Below are positions 1 to 37,783 of a DNA stretch of 64,000 nucleotides, one piece after another. The DNA comes from an uncultured Verrucomicrobiae bacterium. GTDB lineage: Bacteria > Chlamydiota > Chlamydiia > Chlamydiales > JAFEGQ01. Within the stretch, counting starts at the first letter, position 1. Each line of letters begins with the position of its first letter. The notes below the pieces were generated by a model, which saw only the letters and a program-made list of their open reading frames with translations, did not search any database and was not told where the DNA came from. Position numbers and translations under genes: made by a program. The stretch covers positions 10,356 through 74,355 of the forward strand of contig CAVUAA010000001.1 in NCBI GenBank assembly GCA_963739345.1, given 5' to 3'.

Positions 1-329
1 GCCACCAAGGCGGCGCTGGAGTCGCTGGCGCGCACCTACGCCGCCGAGACCGTTTCGACGCCGATCCGCGTCAACCTGTTCGCGCCCGGCCCGACGCGCA
101 CCGGATGCGCGCCGCGGTCATGCCGGGCGAGGACCCGATGACGCTGCCTACGCCGGAGGAGGTCGCAGCGGCGATCGTGCCGCTTTGTCTGCCCGGTTTC
201 GCGGAGACTGGCAAGATCTACGACTTCCGCGCCGGCAAGCTGAACGTCGTTTCGTCCGCCGGCGTGACGGCCGCCGCGCCCCAGCGCGGTCGGATGGTTC
301 GTGCCACGCATGATGGGAGCGGCGCATGA
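1..329 (+). pseudogene. Short-chain dehydrogenase/reductase (SDR), C-terminal fragment entering from upstream; frame switch near nt ~100
   Basis: Frame 1 reads ATKAALESLARTYAAETVSTPIRVNLFAPGPTRT. ORF 105..329 continues MRAAVMPGEDPMTLPTPEEVAAAIVPLC..GKIYDF in a different frame. Confidence 0.55.
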
Positions 330-338
330 GCTGGCGAT

Positions 339-2030: not shown

Positions 2031-2186
2031 TCAGCTTGCCAGCGCGGTGAGAAAGCATGCATTGTTTCGCACAACGGACGGCAGTCCAGCCGTACGCAAG
2101 GATCGTGCCATGCTCGAAGTTGACGACATCCGTTGTGCTAAATCGACCAAGCGAGTGGCGAAACATGAGATTTTCATGAAGCGATC

Positions 2187-2533
2187 GTGTCGGCTATTTT
2201 TGGCGGCGCCAAGTCTGCTGCGAGCGCCATCACCGGCGGTTCGTCAGCGCCGGCGGCGGCCAAGCCGATGAGCCGCGCCGAGGTGGAAGGCATGATCCAG
2301 AAACTGGCCGATCAGTCGAAGGAAATGCTGGACTCGGCAGCATTCGATCGTCGACCTGATGAAGCTGGCTCAAGCTCGACAGCAGCCTGAAGTCATCGCG
2401 AGCAGCTCGCCAAGGAGCATGGCTACACCGGTGCTCTGACACGGCTCGCTGCGGAGATGAACATCTGGCTCACAAGCAGGTCATGACCAAGCTCGAAGAG
2501 AGCGGCGGTGGTCGTGCCGGACAGCCTGAAATA
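2187..2533 (+). pseudogene. DUF3597-like small protein, frameshifted
   Basis: VSAIFGGAKSA...KPMSRAEVEGMIQKLADQSKEMLD (ORF 2187..2390). The later segments SIVDLMKL and [13 protein letters not shown], ending ..VVPDSLK*, are seen only in other frames. Confidence 0.45.
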
Positions 2534-3989
2534 GACAGACGGTACCGGCTGAGCGGTTGCCTTGTGCGACTCTGCCGGCGCTGGCCGAACCCATCCTGCG
2601 CCGGCCGAGGCTCTAGCGCCGGCGCGCGTCCGGCGTACGGGTTGGCCTTCTCGCGCAGCGTCAGCCGGATCGGCGTGCCGGGCAGGTCGAACGCCTCGCG
2701 CAGCGCGTTGACCAGATAGCGCCGGTAGGCCGCCGGCACGGCGTCGGCGCGGGCGCAGAACAGCACGAAGCTCGGCGGGCGGCTCTTGGGCTGCGTCACG
2801 TAGTTGAGCCGGATGCGCCGGCCCGACACCGCGGGCGGCGGGTGCGCGGCGAGTAACATCGGCGAGCCAGCGGTTGAGCTCATGGGTCGGAACGCGCCGG
2901 TTCCAGACCTGCGTGAATGTCGACGATCGCCTGCATCAGCCGGTCGAGCCCCTCGCCGGTCAGGCCCGAGACGCCGATCAGCGGCACGCCCTTGACCTGC
3001 GGCAGCGCGTCGGTCGGCCTGTCTCGCGCAGCTTGGCTGAGTCCGCCGCCTGCCGCGCTCGGCCAGCGTCCCATTTGCTGATGCCGATGACCAGCGCGCG
3101 GCCCTCGCGCTCGACCAGGTCGGCGATGCGCAGATCCTGCTCCTCGAACGGCTGCTCGACCTCCATCAGCAGCACCACCACCTCGGCGAAGCGGATGGCG
3201 TTGATGGCGTCGGCGACCGAAAGCTTTTCGAGCTTTTCCTGCACCTTCGGCGGCCGCCGCAGCCCGGCGGTGTCGTGCAGCCGAAACGTCCGGCCGCGCC
3301 AATCGCAGATCGACCGCGATGGCGTCGCGGGTGATGCCGGCCTCGGGACCGGTCAGCAGCCGCTCCTCGCCGATCAGCCGGTTGACCAGTGTCGACTTGC
3401 CGGAGTTCGGCCGCCCGACCACGGCGACGCGGATCGGCCGGTCGCTCGGCCTCGGTCGGTCGGCGTCCTAGCGCAGGCTGCGCGGTCGCCTCCGGCAGCG
3501 CCGCGCGCAGCGCCTCGAAGAGGTCCGCCAAGCCCTCGCCATGTTCGGCGGAGATCGCGACCGGCTCGCCAAGGCCGAGCGCGATAGGCTTCGACGACGC
3601 CGGACTGCGCCGGCTTTGCCCTCGGCCTTGTTGGCGACCACGATCGCGGGCTTGCCCGAGCGGCGCACCAGATCGGCGAATGCGCGATCGTCGGGCAACG
3701 GTCCGGTGCGCGCGTCGATCAGGAAGAACACCGCGTCGGCCTGCTCGATCGCGGCCTTGGTCTGCTCCAGCATGCGGCCGGCGAGGCTGTCGGCGTCGGC
3801 GTCTTCGAGTCCGGCGGTGTCGATGAGCGGTGAATTGCAGATCGCCGAGTCGGGCCTCGCCCTCGCGCCGGTCGCGGGTGACGCCGGGCCGATCGTCGAC
3901 CAGCGCCAAGCCGCCGTGCCGACCAGCCGGTTGAACAGGGTCGACTTGCCGACGTTCGGCCGGCCGACGATGGCGACGGTGAAGCTCAT
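2470..3989 (-). pseudogene. der: Ribosome-associated GTPase Der/EngA, split over three frames; 3' end uncertain (may stop near ~2610)
   Basis: ATG at 3989 followed by MSFTVAIVGRPNVGKSTLFNRLVG. Second G domain [33 protein letters not shown] (ORF 2880..3422). C-terminus [47 protein letters not shown] (ORF 2470..2883). Confidence 0.8.
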
Positions 3990-3992
3990 GTC

Positions 3993-4482
3993 GAGCCCGC
4001 TCGGGTCCGATGCCCGCAATGCGAGGCCTGACAGTGCGGCAGGCTGCGGCTGATCGCGCCTGCTGCGGCGATCCGGGTGGAGGTCTGCTGCGGCCAGGCG
4101 CGGCTCTTGTTCGGCGCGGCGTCGTGCGGCCGGCGTGCGGCCGGACTGTGCGAGCCGTTGCGGCGCACCTGCGGCGGCGGCTCGGCGATATCGCGGCTGG
4201 CGATGCGGGCGAAGCTGGCGCCGCGGCGCGCTGTCGCCCTCGGTCTCGACCGGCTCGACCGGGCGGCGGCGGCGGCTCCGGCGGCGGTTGATAGCCGCGA
4301 ACCAGTTCCGGCGGCACGCCCTGTGGAACGCCCGGCACGCCGTCCGGGAAAACCGCCTTGCGTTCGCCGGGCAGCGGCTTCTTGGTGTTGAACCAGCTTT
4401 CCGGATCGAAACTTTCGCAGCCGCCGAGCGCAAGGCCGAACGCCAGAGCAGCCATCGTGAGCAGCGTGCGAGGGCGGCGCAT
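3993..4482 (-). CDS. Small Pro-rich lipoprotein upstream of der (3' end approximate)
   Basis: N-terminus MRRPRTLLTMAALAFGLALGGCESFDPESWF has a lipobox (LGGC). The rest of ORF 3166..4482 is read-through into der out of frame. Confidence 0.4.
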
Positions 4483-4490
4483 CGGGTCCC

Positions 4491-5150
4491 TCAGCTCTTC
4501 TGCCGGAAGTCGGCGAGCGCCATCAGAATCTGAACCTGGTTGCGGGCGCCGGCCGGAGCATCTGCGTCGGCAAGGACCATGTCGGTCCAGCGCCGCATCG
4601 CACTGATGTCGTTGGCGCGCCAGGCGGCCAGCGCCAGCAGGCTGCGCGCGCTGTGGCGGAAGGTGCGGTCCGGCGCGGTCAGCGGTTCCAGCCGCTGGCG
4701 CAAGTCTTCATAGGTTGCGGTGTCGACCAGGATGAGCCCGGCACGCAACGCTGGCCAGGTCCTGCGAGAACCCGGCCGACGCTGTGGATCGGCGGCGAGC
4801 TAATCGTAGATGCGCGACGCGCTGCCTTGGGATCGCGCTTGGCGAGATCGGCCGCCTCGTTCAACTTGCCGAGCATGCGGTAGGTCGCCGTGCCATCTGC
4901 CGCGAGCTTGGCAAAGGCGGCTTCGGCCTCCTTGTGACTTGCCCTGCTCGCTCAAGGTCATGGCGGCCTCAAACGCCGCGCCGGCCTGCGCTGCCTGCTT
5001 GGCCTCGTACCATTGATAGGCCCGCCAGCCGCCGACCGCGACGACCAAGCAGGACGCCGCCGCAATCAGGTAGATGCCATAGCGCTCCCACAGCTTTTGA
5101 AACTGCTCCCGGCGTACTTCTTCGTCGACTTCGCGGAAGATATCGGACAC
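4491..5150 (-). pseudogene. TPR-like membrane protein (YfgM-like), frameshifted
   Basis: [63 protein letters not shown] (4800..5150) continues in ORF 4491..4748 (..RSLLALAAWRANDISAMRRWTDMVLADADAPAGARNQVQILMALADF). Confidence 0.5.
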
Positions 5151-5288
5151 GAACCGTTCCCCTGCCTGCCGGACCGTCGTCCCCGGCTAAGCCATGCGCA
5201 GCCGCGTAAAATAGTGATGTGGCGGCCCCAAGGCAAAGGTTCCGCGCCGCAGGCAGGACCGTTAGCAGCGGCTGCGACGCAAAGCCAA

Positions 5289-6111
5289 CTACTTCTTCTT
5301 CATGCCATAGACGTGGTCGGGCCCGGGAAAGGCGCGCGAGCGCACGTCGCTGGCGTAGCCCGCGACCGCCGCCTCGATGCCGGGACCGATGTCGCCATAG
5401 CGCTTGACGAATCTGGGCACGCGCGGCGACAGCCCGAGCATATCCTCCAGCACCAGGATCTGGCCGTCGCAGGCCGGGCTTGCTCCGATCCCGATGGTCG
5501 GAACCGCCACCTGTTCGGTGATGCGGCGGGCCAGCGGCTCGGCCACCGCCTCGATAACCAGCGAGAACGCGCCCGGCGTCGGCCACCGACTCGGCGTCAT
5601 CCTCGATCGGGCCCCAATCCTTCTCCTCGCGGCCCTGGGCGCGGAACGAACCGATGGTGTTGATCGCCTGCGGGGTGAGGCCGACATGGCCCATCACCGG
5701 TACGCCGCGCTCGGTCAGGAAAGCGACGGTTTCGGCCAGCCGCCGGCCGCCCTCGACCTTGATCGCGCCGCAGCCGGTTTCCTTCATGACTCGCGCGGCG
5801 TTCATGAAGGCCTGCTCCTTGGACGCCTCGTAGGAACCGAACGGCATGTCCACCACCACCAGCGCCTGCTTGGAGCCGCGCATCACGGCATGGCCCTGAA
5901 GGATCATCATGTCGAGCGTCACCGGCACCGTCGTCTCGAGCCCATGCATCACCATGCCAAGCGAGTCTCCGACCAGGATGACGTCGCAGTATTGATCCAC
6001 CAGCCGTGCGGTGTGGGCGTGATAGGAGGTCAGGCATACGATCGGCTCGCCGCCCTTGCGGGCGCGGATGTCCGGCGCGGTCATGCGCTTGATCTGTTCT
6101 TGAACCGACAT
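5289..6111 (-). pseudogene. panB: 3-methyl-2-oxobutanoate hydroxymethyltransferase, one frameshift near ~5580
   Basis: [67 protein letters not shown]. The C-terminal part [25 protein letters not shown] lies in ORF 5289..5687. Confidence 0.85.
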
Positions 6112-6114
6112 GCT

Positions 6115-6712
6115 TCAACCTGTGAAAGCGGGGACGCCGATCACGTAGGGATGGAAGTACAAACCGAGCAGAACATACACTACCGTGCCAACCAGCACCG
6201 CAATGATGTCGTTCCTGACGCCGCCGACCGGGATCGGCGGCGCACCCGGATCGGCGCGGTGCTTGAGCGAAATGCGATCGAACACCGCCCAGGCCAGGAT
6301 CGCACCGAACAGCACGATCGAGCCGAGGTCGCCGTTCGAGAGCAAGATGCGCCAGCGCCCAAAGCTTCACCCCGACCAGGAACGGATGTTTGAGCGTGGT
6401 CTTGATGCGGCCCGGGCTGTAGGCGGCAACGATGCAGACGATCGCCGGCCAGACCAACGCGACCGTGACGTGGCGCATCCAGATCGGCGGATACCAGACC
6501 TCGATCGGGCCGGCCGCCCGATAAAGCGCAAATCCATGACCGATCAGAACCAGCCCGATCAGCGATATGATCGAATAGACCGCCTTGTACGTGCCGGTTC
6601 CGACCCGCGCGATCAGGTCTGCCCTTGCGCTCCGGAAGGCGGTGACGGTATGCGGCGCCAGAAACACCACCAGCCCGAGCACGAGTATCGCAAGGCCCAT
6701 GACGCGCTCCAC
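6115..6712 (-). pseudogene. NnrU family membrane protein, one frameshift
   Basis: MGLAILVLGLVVFLAPHTVTAFRSARADLIARVGTGTYKAVYSIISLIGLVLIGHGF.. (ORF 5597..6712), then LSNGDLGSIVLFGAILAWAVFDRISLKHR (ORF 6115..6345). Confidence 0.6.
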
Positions 6713-6715
6713 GCC

Positions 6716-6879
6716 CTAGTGTCCCGCTTCCGAAGTTCGTCATACGTCGCAGCATTCGCTGACACGAACTTCGGAAGCCAAGGGGCACTGGCAAGTCTAT
6801 GATTCTAGTGCCGCTTTCGATTTGAAGTTCCTGAATACGATTGCGGCAGATGGTCGCAGGAACTTCAAATCGGCGGCAC
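6716..6879 (+). repeat. Twin-hairpin intergenic repeat, copy 1
   Basis: ctagtgtcccgcttccgaagttcgt..acgaacttcggaagccaaggggcac, followed by ctagtgccgctttcgatttgaagttcctg..caggaacttcaaatcggcggcac. Nearly identical to 9335..9499. Confidence 0.85.
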
Positions 6880-6969
6880 CAGCGGGCAACCGCAGTAGGC
6901 CATGGCCCGCCCGGAAGCAAGGCCGCCACCGAGCGCACGCGAATGCACGCTCACCGCCGCCGCGCTATC

Positions 6970-8336
6970 ATGGACACCATGGTCGACCATGACATCCGCG
7001 AACCGGAGCGCCGCTTGCCCGTGCGCGGCGAATACGACGTGGTCGTGCTGGGCGGCGGTCCGGCCGGCATTGCTGCTGCGGCCGCTGCCGGCGGACTCGG
7101 GCGCAAGACGCTGCTGGTCGAGCGCTACGGCTTTCTCGGCGGCATGGGCACCGCCGCCGGCGTCACCAACTTCTGCGGACTGCACGCCAACGTCCACGGC
7201 GACATCCGCCAGGTCGTGCATGGCGTCGCCGATGAATTGCTGGAGCGGATCGACCGGCTGGGCGGCCTCAATGCGCCGCATCTCGTGTTCGGCAAGACCA
7301 AGGCGCAGGCCTACGACACCGCGGCCTACAAATGCGCGGCCGACGACCTGCTGCTCGGCCACGGCGTGGACATGCTGTTCCACGCTCTGGGCGCCGGCGT
7401 CGTGATGGACCCCGACGACACCATCCGCGCGCTGATCCTGGAGACCAAGTCGGGGCGCGCGGCCGTCGTCGCCGCATATTCATCGACTGCTCCGGCGACG
7501 GCGACCTTGCCGCCTTCGCCGGCGCGCCGTTCGAACGCGGCGACGGCCAAGGCTCGATGCTCTACCCGACCATGATGTTCCGCCTGAACGGCGTCGATCC
7601 CGAGGCCGCGGGCGAAGCCTGGAAGACGATCCCCGACCTGATGGACGACGCCGAGCGGCGCGGCGGGCAGTTTCCCGCGCAAGGGCGCGATCGTGCGTCC
7701 GCAGAAAAATCCGATCGAGTGGCGCGTCAACGTCACGCAGATGAAACGGCCGGATGGCAGCGCGCTCGACGGCACCAACGCCGACGAGCTCACTGCCGGT
7801 GAAATCGAGGGCCGCCGGCAGGCCATGGCGTTCTTTCGAATTCCTCAAGCGTGAGGCGCCGGGTTTCGCCAACGCCTATATCGTCGATATGCCGCCGCAG
7901 ATCGGCATCCGCGAGACGCGCCGCTGGCCGGCGCTATCAACTCACCGCCGAGGATGTGATCTCGCTGCGCGAGATTTTCCGGACACCATCGGCGTCAACG
8001 GCTGGCCGATCGAAAAGCATGTGGCCGGCGATGTCGAATGGCGAGTGGCCGGCCGATTCCGCAGTCGCGCGGCTTCAACCACCTGCCCTACCGGATGCTG
8101 GTGCCACGGAAGCGTGCGCAACCTGCTGGTGGCGGGCCGCTGCGCCTCGATGACGCACGAGGGTCAGTCGGCCGCACGGGTCAGCGGAGCCTGTTTCGTC
8201 ATGGGCGAAGGCCGCCGGCTACCGCCGCCCATCTGGCGCTTGCCGGCAATTCCGGCGTTGGCTGAGATTCCGGTTGAAGCGCTGCAGGCGTTTGCTTGAG
8301 AACGACGGCGCCTATCTCGGGCGTGACATCCGATGA
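6970..8336 (+). pseudogene. FAD-dependent oxidoreductase, multiple frameshifts
   Basis: MDTMVDHD..EYDVVVLGGGPAGIAAAAAAGGLGRKTLLVERYGFLGGMGT (dinucleotide-binding GxGxxG). Later segments FIDCSGDGDLAAFAGAPFE, FLKREAPGFANAYIVDMPPQIGIRETRR and LLVAGRCASMTHEGQSAARVSGACFVMGE lie in other frames. Confidence 0.65.
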
Positions 8337-8365
8337 CGCAGCCCGGCCCGGAGGAGAGGCAGACG

Positions 8366-9338
8366 ATGATGAGACGCTTGACTACTGGCGCTTGCACTGG
8401 TGGCTTGTCTGCTGGCGGCGCATGCCTGTCGGCTGCGCAGGATTGGCCGACCAAGCCGGTGCGGATCATCGTGCCGTTCGGCGCCGGCTCGACGCCCGAC
8501 GTGGTTGCCCGCCTGATCGCCGATCATCTGCAGAAGAAGCTCGGCCAGCCGTTCGTGATCGAGAACAAGCCGGGCGCCAGCGGCAACACCGGCACCGATG
8601 CGGTCGCCAAGGCCGCGCCCGACGGCTGCGACCATCGGCATCAGCATCGGCGGGCCGCTTGCCATCAACACGCTGCTGTTCTCGAAGCTGCCCTACAACC
8701 CCAGACCGACATCGCCCCGATTACCCAACTGGTGACCCAGCCGAGCGCGCTTGCGGTTAATTCCGACGTTATGGTTAACAGCGTCGCCGAACTGGTCGCG
8801 CTTTTGAAGCGCGAACCGGGCAAATACAACTTCGGATCGATCGGCAACGGCTCGCTTTCGCACCTGGCCATGGAGGCGATCGCGCTCAAGAGCGGCACCC
8901 AGATGGTGCATATCCCCTACCCGTCCTCGCCCGCGGCGATGACCGCGATCATCCGCGGCGACGTGCAAATGGGCTGTCTGCCTGCGATCTCGGTGACCCC
9001 GCATGCCGAGGCCGGCAAGGTCAAGATCCTCGCGGTCTCGACCGCGAAGCGTTCGCCCTATTTGCCGCAGATTCCGACGCTGAAAGAGGCCGGAATCGAC
9101 GTCGAAGCCGACGCCTGGATGGGCATGATCGCGCCCGGCGCACACGCCGGAGGCCATCGTTGCGAAAATTCAGCGCGAGGTGGTAGAAGCGATTGGGACG
9201 GCGGCGATCCGCGACAAGCTTGCGGCGCAGTTGATGGAGCCGGTCGGCAATACGCCGGCCGAGTTCCGGGCGCGCATCGACGGCGAGATCGCCCGCTGGG
9301 CGCCGGTGATCAAGGCCGCGAACGTCAAGGTTAACTAG
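8366..9338 (+). pseudogene. Bug/TctC-family tripartite tricarboxylate transporter substrate-binding protein, frameshifted
   Basis: WPTKPVRIIVPFGAGSTPDVVARLIADHLQKKLGQPFVIENKPGASGNTGTDAVAKAAPDG..YNFGSIGNGSLSHLAMEA. The end ..PVIKAANVKVN* is in another frame. Confidence 0.75.
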
Positions 9339-9499
9339 TGCCCCGCTTCCGAAGTTCGTGAGACATGGCAGCACTCTCTCACACGAACTTCGGAAGCAAA
9401 GGGGCACTGGCAAGTCGATGATTCTAGTGCCGCTTTCGATTTGGAAGTTCCTGAATGTGTATTGCGGCAAATGGTGCAGGAACTTCAAATCGGCGGCAC
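9335..9499 (+). repeat. Twin-hairpin intergenic repeat, copy 2
   Basis: Same two-hairpin architecture and near-identical sequence as 6716..6879, in the same orientation. Confidence 0.85.
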
Positions 9500-9540
9500 G
9501 AGGTCGGGGTCGCGCGTACGGGTAGCGTGGGAGCAAGGCG

Positions 9541-9944
9541 ATGAGTGCCGATCAATATCCCGAGGTCAGCGATGACGATGCGGGCATCGTCCCGCCGCAG
9601 GGTGGGCGTGGAGCGGAATGGCCGAAGAAAATTCGGACGCTGACGGCGGCGGAGCTTGATCGCCTGACGATCGACGCCGGCGGGCGGTTTTACTGGGACG
9701 GCCGCCTCGTCAACTATGAGCCCCCGCACCGCCCAAGCCTGCGGTCGAGGAGAAACCGGCCGAAGACCCGTCGGTTGACGCGCTCGACCGGTCGGCGATG
9801 GACCTGCTCGATCGCGCGGCACTCGAACTGACGGATCGAACGCCGGTCGAGCCGCTTGACGGCCGCGACGAGCAGGCCATGGCGGACCGGCTCGCGGCAG
9901 ACCACCCCGCTGCGACCGGCGACGAGGTCACAGCCGAACGTCAT
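9541..9944 (+). CDS. Hypothetical protein, frameshifted and apparently cut at the block boundary
   Basis: ORF 9541..9831 (MSADQYPEVSDDDAGIVPP..LTIDAGGRFYWDGRLVNYEPP) continues in ORF 9798..10148 up to about 9944. No family recognised. Confidence 0.3.
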
Positions 9945-10158
9945 ACGCGGGACAGGTCGCGGACGCGCTTGACCTCGACCTGGTCGATGACCGCGTTGAA
10001 GATCTTCTCGCGCGGGAGTGCTGGTAGCCGATCGTCACCAGCACGCAGTCGTTCTTGCGGTACTTGTGCGACTGTCGCCGCAGGCGGATTGTGGCCGTCT
10101 TGCGACCGCGCCGAAGCTGATCGGCGAACACCGACGAGTAGAAGTTGAGGACGCGCAC
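9941..10158 (-). pseudogene. ASCH-domain protein, 3'-truncated at the block boundary and frameshifted
   Basis: MRVLNFYSSVFADQLRRGRKTATIRL..KYRKNDCVLVTIGYQHS (9928..10158), then PREKIFNAVIDQVEVKRVRDLS (9941..10198). The expected distal part is absent. Confidence 0.5.
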
Positions 10159-10219
10159 GGGCGCTCAGCCTACCGATCTGATGACAAGCGCGCGACAACG
10201 CGCGCGAACGATTTCCCGC

Positions 10220-10600
10220 TCACCGGCGTAGGTCGAGTTCCCGAGCGGCCTGCTCCGAGGCATCCAGCGTGCATCCTCGATCTCGTGATCGTGGTCCTCG
10301 AGGCTCCCGATCGGTATTCGAACAGGTAGAACGCCACCCGCTTGTTCCGCCTGCGGCCCCGTCGCTCGTAGCTGTACTCGACGTCGCCGAGCTTTCGATC
10401 AGCTCGGCGATGCACGCCGGTCTCGGCGACCTCGCGGTCGCCGCCGCCTCCTCGGTCTCACCTTCGTCGAGATGTCCCTTGGGCAGCACGAGGACACGGC
10501 GGTGCTGGGCGTCGCGCTTGACCGGCACGACGACGATCACATCGCCGTCGTGAACGACAGCGCCACCGGCCGACAGCTCGATTGTCCCTCGACCACAGTA
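10220..10600 (-). pseudogene. NUDIX hydrolase, frameshifted (5' end approximate)
   Basis: ELSAGGAVVHDGDVIVVVPVKRDAQHRRVLVLPKGHLDEGETEEAAA, then REVAETGV.. (Nudix box GHxExGE..EAA.RE..EE/TG) spread over ORFs 10220..10540 and 10170..10415. Confidence 0.6.
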
Positions 10601-11316
10601 GACGTACCGTCCGAGCGCCTCTGCGTCATGAACGGTCAGCCTTCCGTCCCTGAGTAATTATTCCTGCGCGCTCGAGCACGGCCAGGAACCGGCTGGCCGA
10701 CTCGCGGCGAGGATCCGGCCAGCTGCGCGACCTCGGCCTGCGTGGTGGTGATCGTGACGTCACCCTCCTCCGGCGCCGTCCTGTCCGCGCGAGCCGCCTC
10801 ACCAGCTGAGCGAGGCACGGCGGCCACGCGGCTCTGCACGGTCTGGAACGACTGGCGCGGCCAGCCGCTCGTTGGTGTCGCGCAGTCGCGCCCGAGGGCC
10901 GCGATCAGCTTCACCGGAGATGTCGGGGTGCTCACGCAGCAGCCGGTGCATGTCGGCGCTGAGGATCGCGATCGCCTCGGTCTCCTCGGTCGTCTCCACC
11001 GTCGCCGACCGGCGCTCGCCGTCGAACATGGCCATCTCGCCGAAGATGTCGCCGGGCGCGAAATGCGCGAGCGGGTGATCGACCGCCCGTCGGGATGCTC
11101 GCGGATCGCGCGCGCCCGGCCCGAGCGGACGATGTAGCACGTAGTGCCCTCGTCGCCCTCCTTGAACACCACCTCCCCGGCCTCGAACCGCCGCGGCACC
11201 ACCAACTGTGCCACCTGCTCGAGCTCCTCGGGCGACAGCGCCGAGAAGACCGGAACCCGCCCGAGCAGCTCGACCGTGTCCTGGCCGTTCGCCGACATCG
11301 CCAATGCATACCACAC
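10600..11316 (-). pseudogene. Crp/Fnr-family transcriptional regulator, frameshifted (3' end approximate)
   Basis: cNMP-binding part LLGRVPVFSALSPEELEQVAQLVVPRRFEAGEVVFKEGDEGTTCYIVRSGRARAI, then GDIFGEMAMFDGERRSATVETTEETEAIAILSADMHRLLREHPD (ORF 10799..11419). The HTH part is in further frames. Confidence 0.7.
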
Positions 11317-11361
11317 GCGCTCCCGCGGCGGACGGACTCACGACCGGGCGCGACCCCGGGG

Positions 11362-12621
11362 TCAGGCCGCGTCGAGCGCCTGCTCGCGGCGCCGGCGCCG
11401 GACCGCCGGAGCCGACCACCAGAGCAGGGCGGCGACGAGAGCGACCGGGATGAGCGCGGCGAGCGCGATCAGCGCGACCCCGGCCGCCACGGTCAGCACG
11501 CGCCCGGCGTCGTGCGCAGCCTTGCCGATGCCGAACCCGCCGCTGACCGTGCGAGACGGGCAGCCGGCACGGACCGGGCGTTGATCTCCAGCGAGAGCTG
11601 GCTGAAGCCGACCTGGCGGTCCAGCCGATTCAGCGTCGCCTGGTCGCTCGAGATCGACGCCTCGGCGTCGCGGATCTGCGCCTTCAGGCTGTCGATTTGC
11701 TCGGTCGTCGTGGCGCGGCGAGCTGCTTGAGCAGCGACGTCCGCAGCGCCCGGCGCATCGGCCGAGCGCCCGCTGGGCCGCGCCGTACTGGTCGGTGATG
11801 TCCTGGCTCGAGTCCGTGCGTGAGACCACCTGCGCGCCGTTCAGCGAGGACAGACGGCTCATCGCCTGCCCGAGCGACGCGCTCGGGACGCTGAGCTGGA
11901 AACTCGGCGTACCTGGCCCGATCCGGCCTTGGGTCACGCGTCGAGTTCACGACGATTCCCGTTCACCGCGCCGATCACGTTGTAGACCTGCTCGGCACGT
12001 CGTCGATCCGGTTGGCGCAGCGGCCAGGTTGAGCTGGGCCGCGACTGGACGACCTTGCGGCCGGTGGTCGGCGGCTGCAGCGTCGGCGCCGCGACGACGA
12101 CGCGTCCGGTGCCGACGGCGCGGAACCGCTGCGCGGCGACGCGCTGTCGACGCGCGCTCGACGCGGCGCCGGCGACGTGCCGCCGATCGTCGCCTGGATG
12201 CCGACCGAGCGGCCTGACCCCGAAGCCGCCACCGAGCCGGCGCGACTCGACGACGACGATGACGATGACGATGACGACGAGGACCGACGGCCGCTGCTCG
12301 CCACGAGCACGATCGCCCGACCAGCGCCGCGACGGGCCGCCAGCCCGCCCGTCGCCTGCCAGAACCCGTGAACACCGGCGCCGGCGCCGGCTCGACCGCC
12401 GCCGGCGCCGGCACGTGGGGAACCGCCGCGCCACGCGCTCATCCATCGACCGGGCAAACTCCGGCGGGCATGGCCGGGCGCTCGGCGGACAGAAGCAGCG
12501 CGATCTCGGCCAGATCGGCGTAGCCGGCGTCGACCGGCTCGCCGGCGAGCACGGCGTCGATCGCGTCGAGCGAAGCGGCGATCTCGGGATCGATCGGTTC
12601 GTCGTGGTCAAGCAGTCGCAT
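11362..12621 (-). pseudogene. Anti-sigma-like N-terminus fused to DUF4349-type domain, frameshifted; contains a GAC/GAT triplet run
   Basis: MRLLDHDEPIDPEIAASLDAIDAVLAGEPVDAGYADLAEIALLLSAERPAMP (12439..12621). Distal FQLSVPSASLGQAMSRLSSLNGAQVVSRTDSSQDITDQYGAAQ (11362..11937). The start overlaps the stop of the upstream ECF sigma gene. Confidence 0.5.
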
Positions 12622-13164
12622 TGCAGGCCTTCCTGAGCTTCTCCATCGTGCGGTACAGCAGCGTGCCGGCGTTCGATTCGCTGATCCCGAGCACGCGGGC
12701 CAGCTCGGCGTTGGACAGCCCGGCGTGGAACTTCAGCGCGACGATCTCGCGCTCGCGGGCAGGCAGAGCAGCCAGCGCCGTCTGAACCGCGGTGCGGCGC
12801 AGAGCGACCTCGCCCGCATCTGGATCCGACAGCGATCGGCCTCCGCGGGCTCGGTCACCAGCGCCGCCACCCTCCGACGGCGGCGCAGCTCATCGAGCGC
12901 CGCGTTGCGAGCGATCCCGAACAGCCACGCGCGCTCCTCGCCGCGCCGGCGGTCGAACGTCCGCCGGCGCCGATAGGCGCGCTCGAACGCGAGCGCGGTC
13001 ACGTCCTCGGCCGCGGCCGGATCGCGCAGCAGGGTCATCACGTACGCGTACACGTCGTCGCGGCTCGAGCGGTACAGCGCCTCGAACCGTTCCCACGAGC
13101 CCGGAGCGGACGGCGGCGCGGTCAGCGTCTCGGTCACACCCTCGACTACGCACGAGGGCATCAT
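12604..13164 (-). pseudogene. ECF (sigma-70 family) RNA polymerase sigma factor, one frameshift
   Basis: WERFEALYRSSRDDVYAYVMTLLRDPAAAEDVTALAFERAYRRRRTFDRRRGEERAWLFGIARNAALDELRRRRR (region 2). Region 4 LPAREREIVALKFHAGLSNAELARVLGISESNAGTLLYRTMEKLRKA is in another frame. Confidence 0.75.
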
Positions 13165-13172
13165 CCATCACG

Positions 13173-13890
13173 TCACGAGTTGCTGCAAACAGCCTCGGGT
13201 CGTTGGTGATCACTCCGGTCACGCCAAGCGCCTCGAGCGCGCGCAGTCGAGGCAGCTCGTCGACCGTCCACACGTAGATCTCCCCTCCGGCCCCGAGCAC
13301 GGCCGCACGAGGCGCGGCGTGACCAGCCGCCAGTGCGACCATCAGCGCATCGCAACGCCGCGTCCCGGATCGCCCGCTGCCGCGCGAGCCGGGAGCAGCG
13401 CCGGAACACGTGCAGCGCGACGAACGCCGGCACCCGCGTGGCGCGCGAGCGAAACGGGTCGCGCTTGAGCTTGGGCACCGACCAGCCGAGCCTGACGCCC
13501 GGCTCGGCCGAGCGCAGCAGCGCGAGGCTCTCCTCGTACTGGGTCGAGATCAGGGCTCGGTCGAGCAACCCGTGCTCCCGCAGGGCTTCGAGCACCCGCA
13601 ACTCGTATCCGGGCAGCTTGAGGTCGACGTCGAGGTCGACCCGGCGAACGGCTCGGAGGCGAGGTAGGCCAGCGCCTCCTCCAGCGTGTGCGGCGTCGCG
13701 GGGCGCAGCGTCGACCCAGTCGTGGGCCAGGATCAAGCCCATCGCCGTACTCCTCCCGCAGCACATCGAACTCGATCATGTCGACGCCCGCCGCCACCGC
13801 CGCGTCGAAGCTCGCGAACGTGTTGCCCGGGGCGATCAGGTCGGCGCCCTTGTGCCCGACGCGCCGCAGACCGAGCGCTGCTCACTTCTG
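13173..13890 (-). pseudogene. Glycerophosphodiester phosphodiesterase family protein, frameshifted
   Basis: GVDMIEFDVLREEYGDG, LILAHDW, DLKLPGYELRVLEALREHGLLDRALISTQYEESL, and EIYVWTVDELPRLRALEALGVTGVITNDPRLF, in three frames. Confidence 0.6.
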
Positions 13891-14659
13891 ACATCCGGGG
13901 CACCAGTACGTCGTGCGGTTGGCGTCGCCCTGTCCCCGGGCCGCGATCCTCGTGCCGCACCGCGGGCACGGACGGCCTGCGAATCCGTACACCGCGGCTG
14001 GATCGCCCGGTGTCCGACCGTGGCCGAGCGCATCATCCGCGGGCGCATGGCATCGATGATCGCCATCGCCTGGAGATCGGAAACATCGGCCACGTGACCG
14101 CCACGGGTCGATCGCGGCCTCCCAGCACCCCTCGGCCTTCCAGATGTTCCCGATTCCCGCGACGTTGCGCTGATCGAGCAGGGCATCGCCGAGATGACGC
14201 GTCTGATCGTCCGCCTCGCAGCCGCGCGAGGAACCGCTCCGGTCGAACTCGCGCGCCAGCACGTCGGGCCCGAGCGCGGCGAGGCGCTGATCGAACCGTG
14301 TCCGGCCCTCGGTCATCAACTCGAGCAGCGGCCCGTCGAACTCCACCACTTCGTGCCCGCCGCAGCGGAGCACGATCCAGGCGCGCCGGGCCCGAGCGCC
14401 CCACCGGCGTCCGGCCGATAGACGCCCCACACGCCGGTCATCCCGAGGTGCGAGTGCAGGACCAGATCGCCCTCAAAGCGCAGGAACAGATGCTTGCCGT
14501 GGGTGTCGACGCTGCATGACCGCCCTGCCCAGCGAGCCGATCGGGCCAGCGGTCGAGCGCGTGCCGGGGCTGCGGCGTCAGGATCTCATCGGGCACGCGG
14601 CCTTCGAGCACCGGGCGGATGCGAACCGCGGCGTAGGCGATCGTGTCGCCCTCTGGCAT
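13882..14659 (-). pseudogene. Fpg/Nei-family DNA glycosylase, frameshifted
   Basis: N-terminal catalytic MPEGDTIAYAA (14438..14659). LLDQRNVAGIGNIWKAEGCWEAAIDPW and the zinc finger GRPCPRCGTRIAARGQGDANRTTYWCPGCQK (13882..14430). Confidence 0.75.
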
Positions 14660-16235
14660 TACGCGCTGAGGGTAGCCGCCGCGGACCCTGCTGGAAACCG
14701 AGCGCCACGAGCGCCGGCCCGACGGGCGAGGACAGCGCCGGTTCGCCGTCGACCTTCTCGAGCGCGAGCCGCCTGATCGCGCCCGCCCGAACCTCCTCGA
14801 CCAGCGCGCGCCAGCGCCGGCTCGATCCGGGGGTCATCCGACGCAACGAGCGTCTGCAGCCCGCGCCCGCCGCGCTCGACGTACAGCACGGGCTCGCCTC
14901 CGGCCAGCACCACGTACGCGCCCGGGACCCGGGTCGGGCGCGCGGCTCTCGTCGTCCGGGCCGGCCAGGCCAGCGCCGCACCGTACGGCTGCGCAGGATC
15001 GACCGCGGCGAGCACGACCGGCGGGTCCTCGTCTGCCCCGCCCGACCGCAGCCGCTCGACCGCGCCCGGAGGGCGAACTGCGCGCCGCCCAAGCCCTTCG
15101 ACGAAGTACCCGCGCCGCGCCACGCCCAGCGTCTCCAGCTGCGACAGCTCCGGGATATAGAGCCGAGAACCCGCCGGGCACCCCCTCGGCGCGCACCGTC
15201 TCGCGGGTCAGGATCCCGTAGCGCTCGAGCAGCAACTCGGCGATCGCCCGCCGGCGCGCCGACGGATCGGCCGTCGGCGGGAACAGCGACCCGGTCAGCG
15301 ACCAGCGACCCTGGACCTGCGCCGACGCGCCCGCGCCGCGACGCCGGCGACGCGAACCGGCCGGGTCGGGCGGCTCCTCGCAACCGGTCGCGCTGGGCCC
15401 GGGCCAGGGTCAGCCGCGGCGCGCGCAGCGGCGCGAACGCGTCGTTCGTCGCCTCGCCGGCCCAGGCCAGGTCCCACAGCGCCTCCTGCAACTCCTCGGG
15501 GGCCAGGTCGACGTCGACCAGCAGGTCGGTGAAGAAGCACGCGCCGGCGCCGAGCCGCGCGCGCACCGCCTCGTGCGCCGGCGAGTCGAGCGGCGCGCCA
15601 CTGCCTCTGGGCGGGGGCGCCAATCAGATCGCAGATCTTCGCGGAAGTACAGGGCGACCCGGCCGGAATTCCGCCCAGCGCACCGGCGCCGATCCACACG
15701 ATCTCGCCCGCAGCGCACAGCTGATCGATCCACGCCGGCGAATACGCGCCGACGCGTCGCGGGAGGACGTCGCGCTCCCACACCTCGGCCGGCACGGCCA
15801 GCCCCTGGAGCGGCACCAGCACCTCGCGCAGGCGGTCGACCCCGGCGCCGGTCGCCGGATGGCGGTCGACGCCCTGCCAGGCGGGGAGGAAGCGCGCCAG
15901 CGCGCGGTCGTCGACCGGCTCTACCTCCTTGCGCAGAACGGCCAGCGAGGCCCGGCGCAAGCGCCGCAGCACCTCGGGGTCGCACCATTCGCGCGTCGAC
16001 CCGCCAGGTCGCAGCTCACCCCGGACGAGGTCTCCGGATTCGTTCGAGCCCGGCCAGTACCGCGGACACGTCAACGCCATACCGCGCGCGAACATCGTCC
16101 ACGGTGAACGGTCCGTGGGTCGCGGCGTATCGACGCGCCAACCGGGTCAGCGCGTCCGGCACGTCCTCCAGGAACGCCGCCGGCAGGCCGCCGGGCGGTG
16201 CCGCGCCGAGCCCGTCGCGGTGAAGCGGATGCAGA
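14659..16235 (-). pseudogene. C-terminal part of an Lhr-type ATP-dependent helicase; 5'-truncated at the block boundary and frameshifted
   Basis: FLEDVPDALTRLARRYAATHGPFTVDDV (16016..16333), EWCDPEVLRRLRRASLAVLRKEVEPVDDRALARFLPAWQGV (15295..16095), ACFFTDLLVDVDLAPEELQEALWDLAWAGEATNDAFAPLR, YFVEGLG..VLAAVDPAQPYGAALAWP. The stop overlaps the nei start (TAATG). Confidence 0.6.
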
Positions 16236-16588
16236 GCTACTGCAAATATCGGAGTGCGCTCACCGCAGTGCTCGATGGGGAGGTGGTGGGGATCGCCTAC
16301 CTCAACCTCCACCCTTATCGAAAGATCGCGCATCAGGCGCTTTTCACCATCATCGTGGATGAGAAGGTGCGCGGCAAGGGAATTGGACGCGCTTTGTTAG
16401 AGGGGCTTGAGAAGCTAGCACGCGATGGCTTCAAGCTCGAGTCACTCCACTTAGAAGTGTATGAGGGTAATCCCGCCATCCGCCTCTACCGGCGGATGGG
16501 CTATCATGAGTTTGGCTTCCAAGGCCACTGGATCAAAGAAGGACCTGGCGACTACCGGGGCAAAATCTACATGGAGAAGTGGTTCTGA
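16236..16588 (+). CDS. GNAT-family N-acetyltransferase, 5'-truncated at the block boundary
   Basis: ..LDGEVVGIAYLNLHPYRKIAHQALFTIIVDEKVRGKGIGRALLEGLEKLARDGFKLESLHLEVYEGNPAIRLYRRMGYHEFG (acetyl-CoA motif RGKGIG). About 40 N-terminal residues seen in the downstream paralogue are missing. Confidence 0.6.
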
Positions 16589-17085
16589 ACTCCCTAGAGA
16601 TCCGACCAAGTATTACTGAGGATATTCCTCATCTTCAAGCGTGGCTTTCGGAGCCGCGTACAGAGCCTTTCTTTCCGACGGGCGATCCGCCGGAGATTGA
16701 GGATGCGGCGAAGCGATGGATTGAGATGACTATCGAGCAGGGGGCCGGTTTCACCGCCACCCTCGACGGCAAGCCTGCCGGCTTCGGGATGCTTTTCCTT
16801 CAGACTTATGAGAAGCTTGTCCATCAAGCTGTTCAAATCCTCGTCGTCGGCCAGGACCACCGCCGCCAAGGAGTTGGTTCCGCTCTCCTCACCGGCCTGG
16901 AGACGCTTGGCCAAGAAAAGGGTATAGAGCTGATCCACGTCGAAGTGTACGACGATCCGGGGGTGGAGCGATTCTATAAATTCCTTGGGTACCGCGAATA
17001 TGCCCGTCAGCTTGGTTGGTCCAAAGACGCTAAACAAGACCCACCGCTTTACCGCGCCCGCGTCTGCCTCGAAAAATTCATATAA
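16579..17085 (+). CDS. GNAT-family N-acetyltransferase (paralogue of the preceding gene)
   Basis: LEIRPSITEDIPHLQAWL..ILVVGQDHRRQGVGSALLTGLETLGQEKGIELIHVEVYDDPGVERFYKFLGYREY. Confidence 0.8.
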   Translation: MVLNSLEIRPSITEDIPHLQAWLSEPRTEPFFPTGDPPEIEDAAKRWIEMTIEQGAGFTATLDGKPAGFGMLFLQTYEKLVHQAVQILVVGQDHRRQGVGSALLTGLETLGQEKGIELIHVEVYDDPGVERFYKFLGYREYARQLGWSKDAKQDPPLYRARVCLEKFI

Positions 17086-17130
17086 CCTAACCAGTCGTTT
17101 TCTCCACTGATACGACACACCGACTCCTTG

Positions 17131-17186
17131 AGTTGTCATGTTTTCATGTCTGACACGATCGTGTCAGACATGAAAACATGACAACT
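17131..17186. repeat. Perfect 56-bp palindrome (28-bp arms, no spacer)
   Basis: agttgtcatgttttcatgtctgacacga|tcgtgtcagacatgaaaacatgacaact, centred on cgatcg. Lies between the GNAT stop and the SprT-like start. Confidence 0.9.
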
Positions 17187-17221
17187 GGCCAGTGAGTTGC
17201 CACAACTAGCCGGTTTGAGCT

Positions 17222-17923
17222 ATGATGGTACTCATCAATGAGCGGAAAATTGCACGTATGAAATTGTTGAGATCGGCGGGGTTGTTACAGCAAGAGTTGG
17301 AGATTCTCTCGGGCAAGCGGCTCGAGATGAAGATCAATCGGAACCGGGTGTCGCTCCTTCGGAAGACGGAGGTGGGGCGCAAGCGGGTTCGCTTGTCAAT
17401 TCATGAGGCTTTTTTGAGTGCGCCGCTTGAGGTGATCGAGGTGGTGGGCGACTGGATCGGTGGGATCGATACGGATGAGGGCGATATTGTTCTGCGCCAG
17501 TTCATCAACGGGATTGAGCTCAAGCGGCCACCACCTGCACGGCTGCAGACCAAAGGGAGTGTGTACGATCTAGGGGAGATCTATCACAAGCTCAATGGGC
17601 AATATTTCGGTGGGAAGTTAGATCTGAAGTGTACGTGGTATCAGCCCAAAAATCAGAGACGGCGGGCGCGCTCAAGGACTCTTGGGACCTATTGCGATGA
17701 TCGAGAGCTGGTCCGGATCAACACCATTCTCGACAATCCAAAGGTGATCCCTGAGTTTGTTGAGTTTGTCGTCTATCATGAAATGGTCCATCATGTCGTC
17801 CCCGCATATAGAGACAGGGCTGGTCGGCGGATTGTGCACAGCCGCCGCTTTCGAGAGGTGGAGCGGCAGTTTGAGCACTACGAGCTGGCCCACGAATGGG
17901 AAAAGAAAAATGGCTGGTCATAG
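17222..17923 (+). CDS. SprT-like zinc metallopeptidase-domain protein
   Basis: HExxH in EFVVYHEMVHHVVPAYRDRAGRRIVHSRRFREVERQF, preceded by WYQPKNQRRRARSRTLGTYCDDRELVRINTIL (SprT-like layout). Confidence 0.5.
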   Translation: MMVLINERKIARMKLLRSAGLLQQELEILSGKRLEMKINRNRVSLLRKTEVGRKRVRLSIHEAFLSAPLEVIEVVGDWIGGIDTDEGDIVLRQFINGIELKRPPPARLQTKGSVYDLGEIYHKLNGQYFGGKLDLKCTWYQPKNQRRRARSRTLGTYCDDRELVRINTILDNPKVIPEFVEFVVYHEMVHHVVPAYRDRAGRRIVHSRRFREVERQFEHYELAHEWEKKNGWS

Positions 17924-18629
17924 TAAATGGGCGAACATCAAGCACCGCAAAGAGCGGGCTGATGCGAAGAAGGGAAAGGCGTTCTCACGCGCGGCGAAGG
18001 AGATCATCAGTGCAGTGAAGGCAGGGGGGACCGATCCCGATGCTAATCCGCGACTCCGATTGGCCATTCAGAAAGCGAAGGCGGTCAATTTCCCTAACGA
18101 CAGCATCGATCGAAACATAAAGAAAGCGAGTAGCGCCGATCAGGCCGACTATTTTGAGCTCACCTACGAAGTGTATGGACATGGCGGGGTAGGTCTGCTG
18201 GTTGAAATCCTGACCGACAACAAAAATCGGATTGCGGGCGACATGCGGATCGCCACCAACAAGCGGGGAGGGACGATCGCCAACCCAGGTGCGGTCGCCT
18301 ACCAGTTTGATCGAAAAGGAGTGATCCAAGTTTCAAAAGAGGGGACCACCGAGGATGACCTTTTCCTGCTGGTCACCGAAGCTGGTGCTGAGGAGTTCGA
18401 CGTGGAGGAGGAGCTCTACATCGTGGTTACGCCCCCCGATGAGCTGATGGCGGTCAAAGAGGTGATCGATGGGGCTGGCGTGGAGGTACTAGAGGCTGAG
18501 CTCCGGATGATTCCGAAGATGCTCGTTGCGGTTGACGAAGAAACTGCCGATGCCAATCAGTCGCTCATCGATTGGCTAGAAGAGCTCGACGACGTCGATG
18601 CTGTCTACCACAACATGGATATAGATTAG
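17910..18629 (+). CDS. YebC/PmpR-family transcriptional regulator
   Basis: MAGHSKWANIKHRKERADAKKGKAFSRAAKEIISAVKAGGTDPDANPRLRLAIQKAK.. Overlaps the preceding stop by 14 nt. Confidence 0.9.
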   Translation: MAGHSKWANIKHRKERADAKKGKAFSRAAKEIISAVKAGGTDPDANPRLRLAIQKAKAVNFPNDSIDRNIKKASSADQADYFELTYEVYGHGGVGLLVEILTDNKNRIAGDMRIATNKRGGTIANPGAVAYQFDRKGVIQVSKEGTTEDDLFLLVTEAGAEEFDVEEELYIVVTPPDELMAVKEVIDGAGVEVLEAELRMIPKMLVAVDEETADANQSLIDWLEELDDVDAVYHNMDID

Positions 18630-19270
18630 TCGTCTTCCTGACGCACTCGTTGCAGCTTGCACTGCCCACCAAATTGGCGGATGCGGATCAGCGCCGTGAG
18701 AGTGACCAATCCGATGAAAGCGGTGGCGAGGGGAGCGAAGATAGAGGGCAGCAAGATCATTCCCAAAAAGAAGAGAAATGCCTCTGACCGCTCGATGAGA
18801 CCAGGGCTGTAGTGGAAGCTATCTGCTGAGTCATTTTCGCTGAAGATGCCCACCACGAGAAATGAGCTGATGCAGAGGAGGATGCTGGTGAGCATCAGTA
18901 GACAGAAGAGGGCGCGATCGGGAGCGACGAGGAAGAGGCCAATCACCACAGCCGATTCGACCACCCGATCAGCGCAAATGTCGAGGACGGTGCCCCAAGG
19001 AGAGCTCTCTCGTCTGAGTCTTGCGATGGTTCCATCAAGGATGTCGAGGTAGCCAGAGAGGATGAGGGCAGAGGCTGCGGCAATCGGAAGGCCAAAGGCG
19101 AGGAGGGGGATGACCGCAATGCCCAGTAGGCAGCTGATGGAGGTGACGATGTTGGCCGGCACGCGGACCAGCTTTCTGGCGATGGGATCGATCAGCAGTT
19201 TCTGAAAGGGGGAGCGGAAGTAAGAATCAATCATGCTTGTTTTTCCTGTTTCGGATCCGGCGGATCGCAA
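18626..19270 (-). CDS. CDP-alcohol phosphatidyltransferase family protein (alternative start 19234)
   Basis: Motif DILDGTIARLRRESSPWGTVLDICADRV (DG..AR..G...D...D), multiple TM segments. Confidence 0.8.
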   Translation of the reverse strand: MRSAGSETGKTSMIDSYFRSPFQKLLIDPIARKLVRVPANIVTSISCLLGIAVIPLLAFGLPIAAASALILSGYLDILDGTIARLRRESSPWGTVLDICADRVVESAVVIGLFLVAPDRALFCLLMLTSILLCISSFLVVGIFSENDSADSFHYSPGLIERSEAFLFFLGMILLPSIFAPLATAFIGLVTLTALIRIRQFGGQCKLQRVRQEDD

Positions 19271-19937
19271 TGGGGAGGAGGGCGACGAGGGCGAGGGCGA
19301 TGAGGGCGATTCTCATATCGGTGTTGAGGATCCCTTCAATGGTAAATCCTTCATCCGAGTCAAGGATGGCGCCAAGGCCTGTTCCCGCCTGCGCGAGGAC
19401 GAAGCTTCCTGGAATGATGCCGATGAAGGTGGTCCAGATGTAGGTCCAGAGCGCCACGCCAAAGAAGGCGGGGGCGATGTTGATCAGCCAGAAGGGGAAG
19501 AGAGGTGCTAGACGGAGGAAGAGCATGTAGCTCACCTGGTCTTTCTGAAAACCGCGCTCCATCTTCTTCAGGTGGGGACCCGCGCGCGCGCGCAGCACAT
19601 CTCCAAGAGCTGTCTTGGCCACCAAAAAGATGATCACCGCTCCCACTGTCGCCCCCAATACGACGTAGATCGTACTTCCAGGCTGCCCAAAGAGAAATCC
19701 GGCAACCAACGTGAGATAGGTCCCTCCGGGGATACTGAGCGCGGTCGAGACGAGATAGATTCCCATGAAAGCGAGGGGTGCAACGATGTAGCGATCGTCG
19801 ATCCAGCCCACAATCGCTTGCCGATGCTTTTGCAGCACCTCAAAGCTAAGGTAGTCGGTGAGATCGAAGATGTAGGCGACCACCATCAGGGCAACAATCA
19901 CCAGAAGGGGAATTAGTCGCCACAGCCATCTACGCAT
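19227..19937 (-). CDS. TVP38/TMEM64 (DedA-related) family membrane protein
   Basis: YLTLVAGFLFGQPGSTIYVVLGATVGAVIIFLVAKT..MLFLRLAPLFPFWLINIAPAFF. 8-nt overlaps with both neighbours. Confidence 0.75.
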   Translation of the reverse strand: MRRWLWRLIPLLVIVALMVVAYIFDLTDYLSFEVLQKHRQAIVGWIDDRYIVAPLAFMGIYLVSTALSIPGGTYLTLVAGFLFGQPGSTIYVVLGATVGAVIIFLVAKTALGDVLRARAGPHLKKMERGFQKDQVSYMLFLRLAPLFPFWLINIAPAFFGVALWTYIWTTFIGIIPGSFVLAQAGTGLGAILDSDEGFTIEGILNTDMRIALIALALVALLPIAIRRIRNRKNKHD

Positions 19938-37364: not shown

Positions 37365-37783
37365 TGGTGGAGGTGGGGAGGATCGAACTCCCGTCCTAGG
37401 TAAGGTCAGTCAAAGACCTCTACATGCATAGTGTCTCGATAATAGTTGGCAACGTCGTGAGACACACCGCTGAAACCAACTTGCCCCATTTAAGCTCGGA
37501 CCCATCCCCTAGGAGCGGCGGAGATCAAGCCCATACCAAGTAAATAACGATCGTCCAAAGACCCCTGGTCCAATCCCTGGCGATCGAGGTACCTAAGGGT
37601 TTAGCTTAGGCAGCCATTGCCCACTCAGCTTCAGCCTCAGCGCGAGCGCCTCGGAAATCTACTGCGTGGATTTTGTTAGTCGTTTTAGCAACTAAACGGT
37701 TTTGTCGGTTTTTTTAGGAGGCCCACCGACGTCCTCCGCATGCCATCAGTGCATCACTTCCCAGTCGAAGCCATTACACCCCC
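37365..37783 (-). ncRNA. ssrA: tmRNA (SsrA)
   Basis: 5' GGGGGTGTAATGGCTTCGACTGGG..GCATGCGGAGGACGTCGGTGGGCCTCCTAAAAAAACCGACAAAA. 3' GGACGGGAGTTCGATCCTCCCCACCTCCACCA. Tag ORF from GCT at 37689. Confidence 0.85.

Follow-up and report, generated by a model that had tools for sequence, protein, structure and literature searches.

The break at 16218-16221 of the window, the stretch of 64,000 nucleotides analysed here, is very probably a non-biological join, judging from the window's own sequence and from colinear contigs of relatives on either side. The window is made up of three blocks of unrelated origin, Hyphomicrobiales-like (block A), Lhr/Nei-bearing and high in GC (block B), and Chlamydiota-like (block C), which meet at two sharp joins (Table 1). 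Chlamydiota-like DNA would have been abutted to an unrelated high-GC fragment of 6.3 kb, and this fragment would in turn have been abutted to at least 9.9 kb of alphaproteobacterial DNA.

The break is no biological feature, and its relevance is as a warning that a public record is contaminated or chimeric. The value is one of quality control, for a public Chlamydiota-like record of 1.25 Mb in which at least 16 kb are foreign, error-rich DNA from two other phyla. If overlooked, this DNA would be misread as gene transfer between phyla into a chlamydial genome, would distort contamination and pangenome statistics, and would send spurious proteins into the databases. The last has already happened with a 537-aa antisense ORF (14494-16107), a 119-aa "GNAT" and many gene fragments. 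If the join were true, it would be a striking acquisition of mosaic DNA by a likely host-associated bacterium; the sequence lends no support to that reading.

Table 1. Blocks, joins and genes of the window, with the basis or extent of each. L001 to L004 are contigs of relatives, identified in the text.
Feature	Position	Strand	Remarks
Block A, Hyphomicrobiales-like (alphaproteobacterial), GC 0.67	1-9938		Colinear with L004, 78-85% nucleotide identity
Genes of block A: adenylate cyclase-like ORF, Der/EngA, TPR_21, PanB, NnrU, FAD oxidoreductase, TctC	1-9938		Many frameshifts; Pfam
Hypothetical ORF of block A, cut mid-gene	9541-9938		End of L004 homology
Second join, block A/block B	9939-9945		L004 homology to 9938, L003 homology from 9946
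Block B, 6.3-kb fragment, GC 0.72	9946-16217	-	L003 alignment and Pfam
Genes of block B: Lhr C-terminal part, Nei, GDPD-like, ECF sigma factor, DUF4349, cNMP-binding regulator, ASCH-like		-	Dense 1-nt indels
Nei/Fpg-type DNA glycosylase	13882-14659	-	H2TH and Fapy_DNA_glyco domains (Pfam); downstream of Lhr; frameshifted
Lhr helicase, C-terminal third	14664-16219	-	About residues 979-1507 of M. smegmatis Lhr; frameshifted, helicase core absent
First join	16218-16221		L001 start 16218, L003 end 16221, GC change point 16220
GNAT1 acetyltransferase, 5'-truncated	16220-16588	+	About residues 56-177 of the 177-aa orthologue kept
GNAT2, intact tandem paralogue, 168 aa	16579-17085	+	Length equal to that of the L001 orthologue
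Block C, Chlamydiota-like (PVC) chromosome, GC 0.55, intact genes	16222-64000		Colinear with L001 (87% nucleotide identity) and L002 (77%)
Genes of block C (1): SprT-like, YebC, CDP-alcohol phosphatidyltransferase family protein, VTT/DedA-type membrane protein, Lpd-like pyridine nucleotide-disulphide oxidoreductase			
Genes of block C (2): HtrA, PreP-like M16 peptidase, IleRS, tmRNA, PhoH, CorA, RmuC, LexA, NrdAB, Legionella_OMP-like proteins			

Position and sharpness of the break

GC content in 1-kb bins is 0.63-0.76 across 1-16000, as against 0.49-0.63 across 17001-64000. At 100-nt resolution it drops from 0.73-0.76 to 0.54-0.61 between 16150 and 16350. A single change point fitted by maximum likelihood to 12000-20000 falls at base 16220, with GC 0.737 to the left and 0.553 to the right and a log-likelihood ratio of 149, which bears out the abrupt compositional break reported in the first-pass annotation. 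The shift persists on both sides of this single point. Across 16300-64000 the best change-point ratio is only 6.9, so that region holds no break comparable to the one at 16220. Tetranucleotide profiles left and right, which the same annotation had proposed to compare, do differ: the correlation is 0.94 when one half of the right side is set against the other, and 0.53-0.68 when either left block is set against the right side.

Independent relatives of the two sides locate the break to within a few nucleotides. Homology to L001, a Logan contig from SRR28415865 that represents a Chlamydia-like relative, begins at window position 16218 and runs rightwards. Homology to L003, contig_77752 of ENA ERZ25039517 (104 kb), from an Lhr-bearing relative, spans leftwards to 9946 and stops on the right at 16221. 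The join therefore lies at 16218-16221, and the GC change point falls within 2 nt of the ends of homology. The junction had been put at about 16235, inside a bracket of 16200-16260; the bracket stands, and the relatives' contigs move the exact point about 15 nt further left. Four nucleotides at the join, CGGT, are compatible with both flanks, and no bases are left unaccounted for. This overlap was considered as microhomology and given no weight, as by our own estimate it has about a 3% probability of arising by chance, and the reference contigs are only 83-87% identical to the window.

Genes cut at the first join

Two genes, Lhr and GNAT1, are cut at the first join, and neither has its other half nearby. 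On the left, minus-strand ORFs in 14662-16146 match the Pfam domains WH3_Lhr (E 9.8e-15) and WH4_Lhr (E 1.4e-9). The piece that adjoins the join aligns with residues 979-1161 of 7LHL_A, the 1508-residue Lhr chain of M. smegmatis (E 1.6e-43). Because the alignment begins at residue 979, about 978 N-terminal residues are missing, the helicase core included. Only the last 530 residues or so remain in the window, from 16219 down to about 14664, and the reading frame changes at least four times among them. The window has no superfamily 2 helicase core of Lhr (DEAD, Helicase_C), which L003 has upstream of the window's break point. There L003 carries on with about 2.7 kb of coding sequence for the Lhr N-terminus (DEAD, DEAD_assoc), at the place where the window turns to GNAT. 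The first reading of this flank, a GC-rich left side with the C-terminal part of Lhr on the minus strand and N-terminal helicase domains that should continue to the right and do not, thus agrees with Pfam, with the 7LHL_A alignment and with the content of L003.

The lhr-nei gene order of the window is also found in L003. The arrangement is like the mycobacterial-type lhr-nei operon (PDB 7LHL) in the WH3 and WH4 domains of Lhr and in the Nei-type glycosylase that follows Lhr in the same orientation. It is unlike that operon in that the Lhr of the window is a remnant of about 530 residues, lacking the core and with its frame broken several times.

On the right, the Acetyltransf_1 match in GNAT1 covers profile positions 23-116 of 116 and begins at about nucleotide 16235, so that the N-terminal part of the domain is missing. 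The C-terminal part is present, along with the segment that usually binds acetyl-CoA. Most of the full-length GNAT1 homologues listed (160-183 aa) align only from residue 39-55 or so, at window position 16217 or 16235. The gene had been described as beginning mid-domain, some 40 residues short of its paralogue at 16579-17085, which is a fair account: the gene lacks about 44 residues by comparison with that paralogue, and 45-55 by comparison with the orthologues P0002 and P0136 (167-177 aa). In the deposited record, GNAT1 is a 119-aa protein called from an internal ATG at 16229 (P0135). Named homologues of GNAT1 come from MAGs of Verrucomicrobia, Parachlamydiales, Chlamydiia and Rhabdochlamydiaceae. 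In a few of the homologues listed, the alignment reaches slightly further to the left, where identity is lower.

Both relatives of the right side, L001 and L002 (JGI 3300082211), have the gene order prfB, full-length GNAT1, GNAT2, SprT-like, YebC. Upstream of the equivalent of the break, L001 has the intact N-terminus of GNAT1 and the end of prfB. The window matches this neighbourhood from about codon 56 of GNAT1 onward, with protein lengths compared with those of L001. Unlike its relatives, it has foreign DNA in place of prfB and of the first 45-55 codons of GNAT1. A search of the window for prfB returned only a weak match, to a small RF-1-domain protein at 24024-24623. Neither prfB nor the N-terminus of GNAT1 is found in 1-16217, and the foreign DNA runs past the left end of the window.

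Three blocks and a second join

The first-pass annotation had unrelated lineages meeting at a single point. They do meet there, and the left side itself consists of two foreign blocks of separate lineages. The second join, 6.3 kb to the left of the first, is just as sharp; it cuts an alphaproteobacterial ORF and brings in a third lineage. To its left lies block A, colinear with contig_38285 of ENA ERZ25039560 (L004), and named homologues of this block come from Pseudolabrys, Bradyrhizobium and Microvirga MAGs. To its right, the ASCH-like gene of block B has its stop codon at 9941-9943.

Block B corresponds to L003 in one 6.4-kb alignment, with 82.8% identity and 167 gap openings, and L003 extends past both ends of it. 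The source of block B is probably a high-GC soil bacterium of the Actinomycetota. Block C is most likely a segment from a PVC bacterium of the Chlamydiota; L002, syntenic with it, carries SWIB and F-box genes. For each flank of the first join there are thus colinear contigs from an unrelated lineage, and their synteny runs on past the break.

Frameshifts and indels

In alignments with relatives of similar divergence, the left blocks show 11-26 gap openings per kb, mostly of 1 nt, and the right block 1.2-5; part of the left excess reflects errors in those relatives themselves. The load of indels and frameshifts differs about 5- to 10-fold between the two sides of the join, a contrast in consensus quality that serves as a proxy for coverage. 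Indels of the left blocks have a density of about 1%. Many homologues of block A switch from frame +1 to frame +3 at about 7471, and many Lhr homologues switch from frame -1 to frame -2 at about 16035-16040. Because dozens of independent homologues, including proteins that NCBI assigns to Microvirga and Ramlibacter MAGs, switch at the same points, the frameshifts belong to the window itself. Der is spread over three frames, and the FAD oxidoreductase domain over two, one of which encodes profile positions 1-139 and the other 211-388. The right block's genes, apart from GNAT1 at the cut, are full length, and their lengths equal those of their orthologues.

For blocks A and B, the closest relatives in the databases are likewise fragments of 100-290 aa, on long ENA contigs named in the style contig_NNNNN. 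Fragmentation of this kind would be what long-read metagenome assemblies with a high error rate typically show. A high GC content can by itself raise Nanopore error rates, whatever the coverage. A statistic of ORF length and coverage for each block was tried and set aside as uninformative, since high GC yields long spurious ORFs.

Mobility and adapter marks

ARAGORN and Rfam find no tRNA in the window; the only feature of this kind is the tmRNA at 37365-37783, 21 kb from the join. Pfam finds no integrase or transposase domain in 1-21900, and none within 14 kb of the first join. A repeat search across 9400-16600 finds no flanking direct or inverted repeats and no target-site duplication, only chance matches in low-complexity, GC-rich sequence. 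The marks by which genomic islands are recognized, namely an integrase or transposase at the border, a tRNA or att site, and flanking repeats, are thus absent from the left side and its joins, and the earlier statement that no tRNA, att-like repeat or integrase marks the junction is confirmed. The Oxford Nanopore ligation adapter has no match with three or fewer mismatches, and no adapter remnant lies at either join; the joins therefore carry no direct trace of a route through chimeric reads.

The join in the deposited record

By exact-sequence look-up, each of the three blocks has products on one and the same NCBI/ENA record, 1,252,598 bp long. The products are those of 6970-7572 (block A), 14494-16107 (block B), the GNAT at 16229-16588, the SprT-like gene and another six genes of the right side. 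The spurious 537-aa ORF, antisense, ends 110 nt to the left of the join, and the 119-aa GNAT starts 8 nt to its right. Since all three blocks share this record, the join was already part of the deposited sequence and does not come from extraction of the window. The protein collection lacks both of the ORFs that span the junction, 15929-16588 (+) and 16016-16333 (-). A 51-mer at the junction has no match in the genome or metagenome contig collections, nor has a 100-nt IUPAC union pattern that fits either flank and was validated on the window.

Origin of the join

An artefact is preferred to a natural insertion because three lineages stand in series, the joins fall mid-gene or at arbitrary points, donor composition and synteny are intact, prfB is missing, and the indel load shows its 5- to 10-fold contrast. 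The first-pass annotation had likewise read the junction as contig concatenation or a chimeric join and not as integration, and the synteny of the flanks, the cut genes, the lack of mobility marks and the indel contrast uphold it. The most likely route would be a chimeric contig of a long-read (Nanopore-type) metagenome assembly, in which chimeric reads or the assembler attached DNA of other community members, of low coverage and near-raw quality, to the end of a chlamydial contig with good coverage and polishing. We infer the sequencing technology, the difference in coverage, and an assembler rather than a depositor as the maker of the join.

Chimeric contigs, joins marked by clipped reads, and frameshift errors are known error classes of long-read metagenome assemblies, according to PMC13087279, which cites Trigodet et al., Nat Biotechnol 2026. 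The present case is like such chimeras in that a contig of more than 1 Mb contains more than one genome, with an abrupt join that bears no biological signature and with frameshift-type indels concentrated in the presumably poorly covered part. It differs in that those classes are defined by read clipping and coverage, whereas this join is known from sequence alone, and in that three lineages follow one another in a span of 16 kb.

A chimera within one contig is favoured over a later concatenation, on the grounds that all blocks share a single record and that their compositions are too different for co-binning. Concatenation after assembly would also be an artefact, a sub-case of the non-biological join, in which two small contaminant contigs and the long chlamydial contig of one bin were pasted together by the depositor without an N spacer. 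It is a possible but rather unlikely course of events. It accounts for the direct abutment of the blocks, which have neither intervening bases nor adapter between them, and for the same record length being returned for every product; block B, at only 6.3 kb and beginning just after a stop codon, is plausible as a small contig. The general picture, short fragments of unrelated taxa beside a main genome, with genes cut at the fragment ends, is that of contaminant contigs concatenated into a pseudo-molecule. Unlike in that picture, all blocks are on one record of 1,252,598 bp, and composition binning would rarely group contigs of GC 0.67 and 0.72 (r 0.53-0.68) with a genome of GC 0.55. The sizes of other NCBI/ENA contigs in the same tables vary as those of real long-read contigs do, and the right block continues for at least 47.8 kb without a further join. 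In INSDC submissions of metagenome-assembled genomes, each contig is normally a record of its own, which also counts against concatenation.

Genuine horizontal acquisition is highly improbable. It would require a chlamydial chromosome with a mosaic island of at least 16 kb, alphaproteobacterial and actinobacterial, that entered by illegitimate recombination, disrupted GNAT1, displaced prfB and is now decaying by frameshifts. The join does lie within a deposited record, the frameshifted genes could in principle be pseudogenes, and the right block has IS4-type transposases at 30992-33069. However, integrase, tRNA, att-like repeat and target-site duplication are all lacking, two unrelated donors meet at a mid-gene break, and the composition and gene order of the donors are unchanged. 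The indels, mostly of 1 nt at a density of about 1%, are matched by like fragmentation in the ENA relatives, and the break lacks prfB, the conserved neighbour. Least probable of all, to the point of being almost negligible, is a join that arose on extraction of the 64-kb window, from separate records of one assembly that were glued together: the failure of the junction 51-mer and its flanks to match the genome and metagenome collections would suit it, but products of all three blocks, including the 537-aa ORF and the 119-aa GNAT that bracket the join, are on the single 1,252,598-bp contig.

Other differences in block A

Differences between the window and L004 at 265-2630 and 6150-6993 were considered as extra joins and rejected. 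These regions hold a frameshifted class III cyclase-like ORF and a complete, frameshifted NnrU, and their composition is that of block A, which fits ordinary variation in gene content between relatives.

A second join and broken genes in the left blocks

Besides the join at 16218-16221, the window has another sharp join at 9939-9945, where an alphaproteobacterial block (1-9938) abuts the high-GC block that bears the Lhr fragment (9946-16217); a hypothetical ORF with its start at 9541 is cut there. Compared with L004, a related ENA contig, the alphaproteobacterial block is longer in two places, by about 1.6 kb at 265-2630, which contains a class III cyclase-like ORF, and by about 0.8 kb at 6150-6993, which contains the NnrU gene. 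Both regions were considered as further joins and rejected, since their composition is that of the block around them; these differences from L004 therefore look like ordinary gene-content variation.

Frameshifts of one nucleotide disrupt genes all along 1-16217, in both left blocks, among them those for Der, PanB, NnrU, an FAD oxidoreductase, Lhr and Nei. Spurious long antisense ORFs from this region, such as 14494-16107 (537 aa), have been taken up as gene products in the public protein collection. There, the Lhr fragment has close homologues that are nearly all fragments 100-216 aa long, located on long ENA contigs (for example, L003 7165-11728, on a 104-kb relative of the Lhr-bearing block). 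For this high-GC lineage, genes fragmented by frameshifts therefore seem to be widespread among public long-read assemblies.

Gene content of the right block

Features identified in the right block (16222-64000)
Feature	Position	Strand	Evidence
Small RF-1-domain protein, 199 aa, ArfB/ICT1-like	24024-24623	-	
Two adjoining DDE (IS4-type) transposase ORFs	30992-33069	-	
tmRNA, 419 nt	37365-37783	-	Rfam 140.9 bits
Four consecutive ORFs of similar sizes	58202-62860	+	Legionella_OMP family matches in the two scanned, the first and last

The prfB gene, expected upstream of the truncated GNAT gene at the join, was not found in the window, where the RF-1-domain protein is the sole release-factor-related sequence. 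L001, a Chlamydiota-like relative of the right block, carries an additional stretch of about 1.07 kb (2631-3700, against window 18629-18635) with a 281-aa gene, located between the YebC and CDP-alcohol phosphatidyltransferase genes, that is missing from the window. Apart from the transposase ORFs, the window has no mobile-element signal; these ORFs fall where the GC of the right block is lowest (0.49-0.52), about 15 kb away from the join. The tag peptide that ARAGORN predicts for the tmRNA is long: AKTTNKIHAVDFRGARAEAEAEWAMAA. Of the four consecutive ORFs, the first and last were scanned, and their family matches suggest that the run encodes outer-membrane porin-like proteins of one tandem family.

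Directly downstream of the intact tandem GNAT paralogue lies a perfect palindrome of 56 nt with arms of 28 nt (17131-17186). It is 98% conserved in L001 (1134-1186), whereas the flanking DNA shows only 87% identity. The palindrome could act as a bidirectional terminator or represent a small repeat element.
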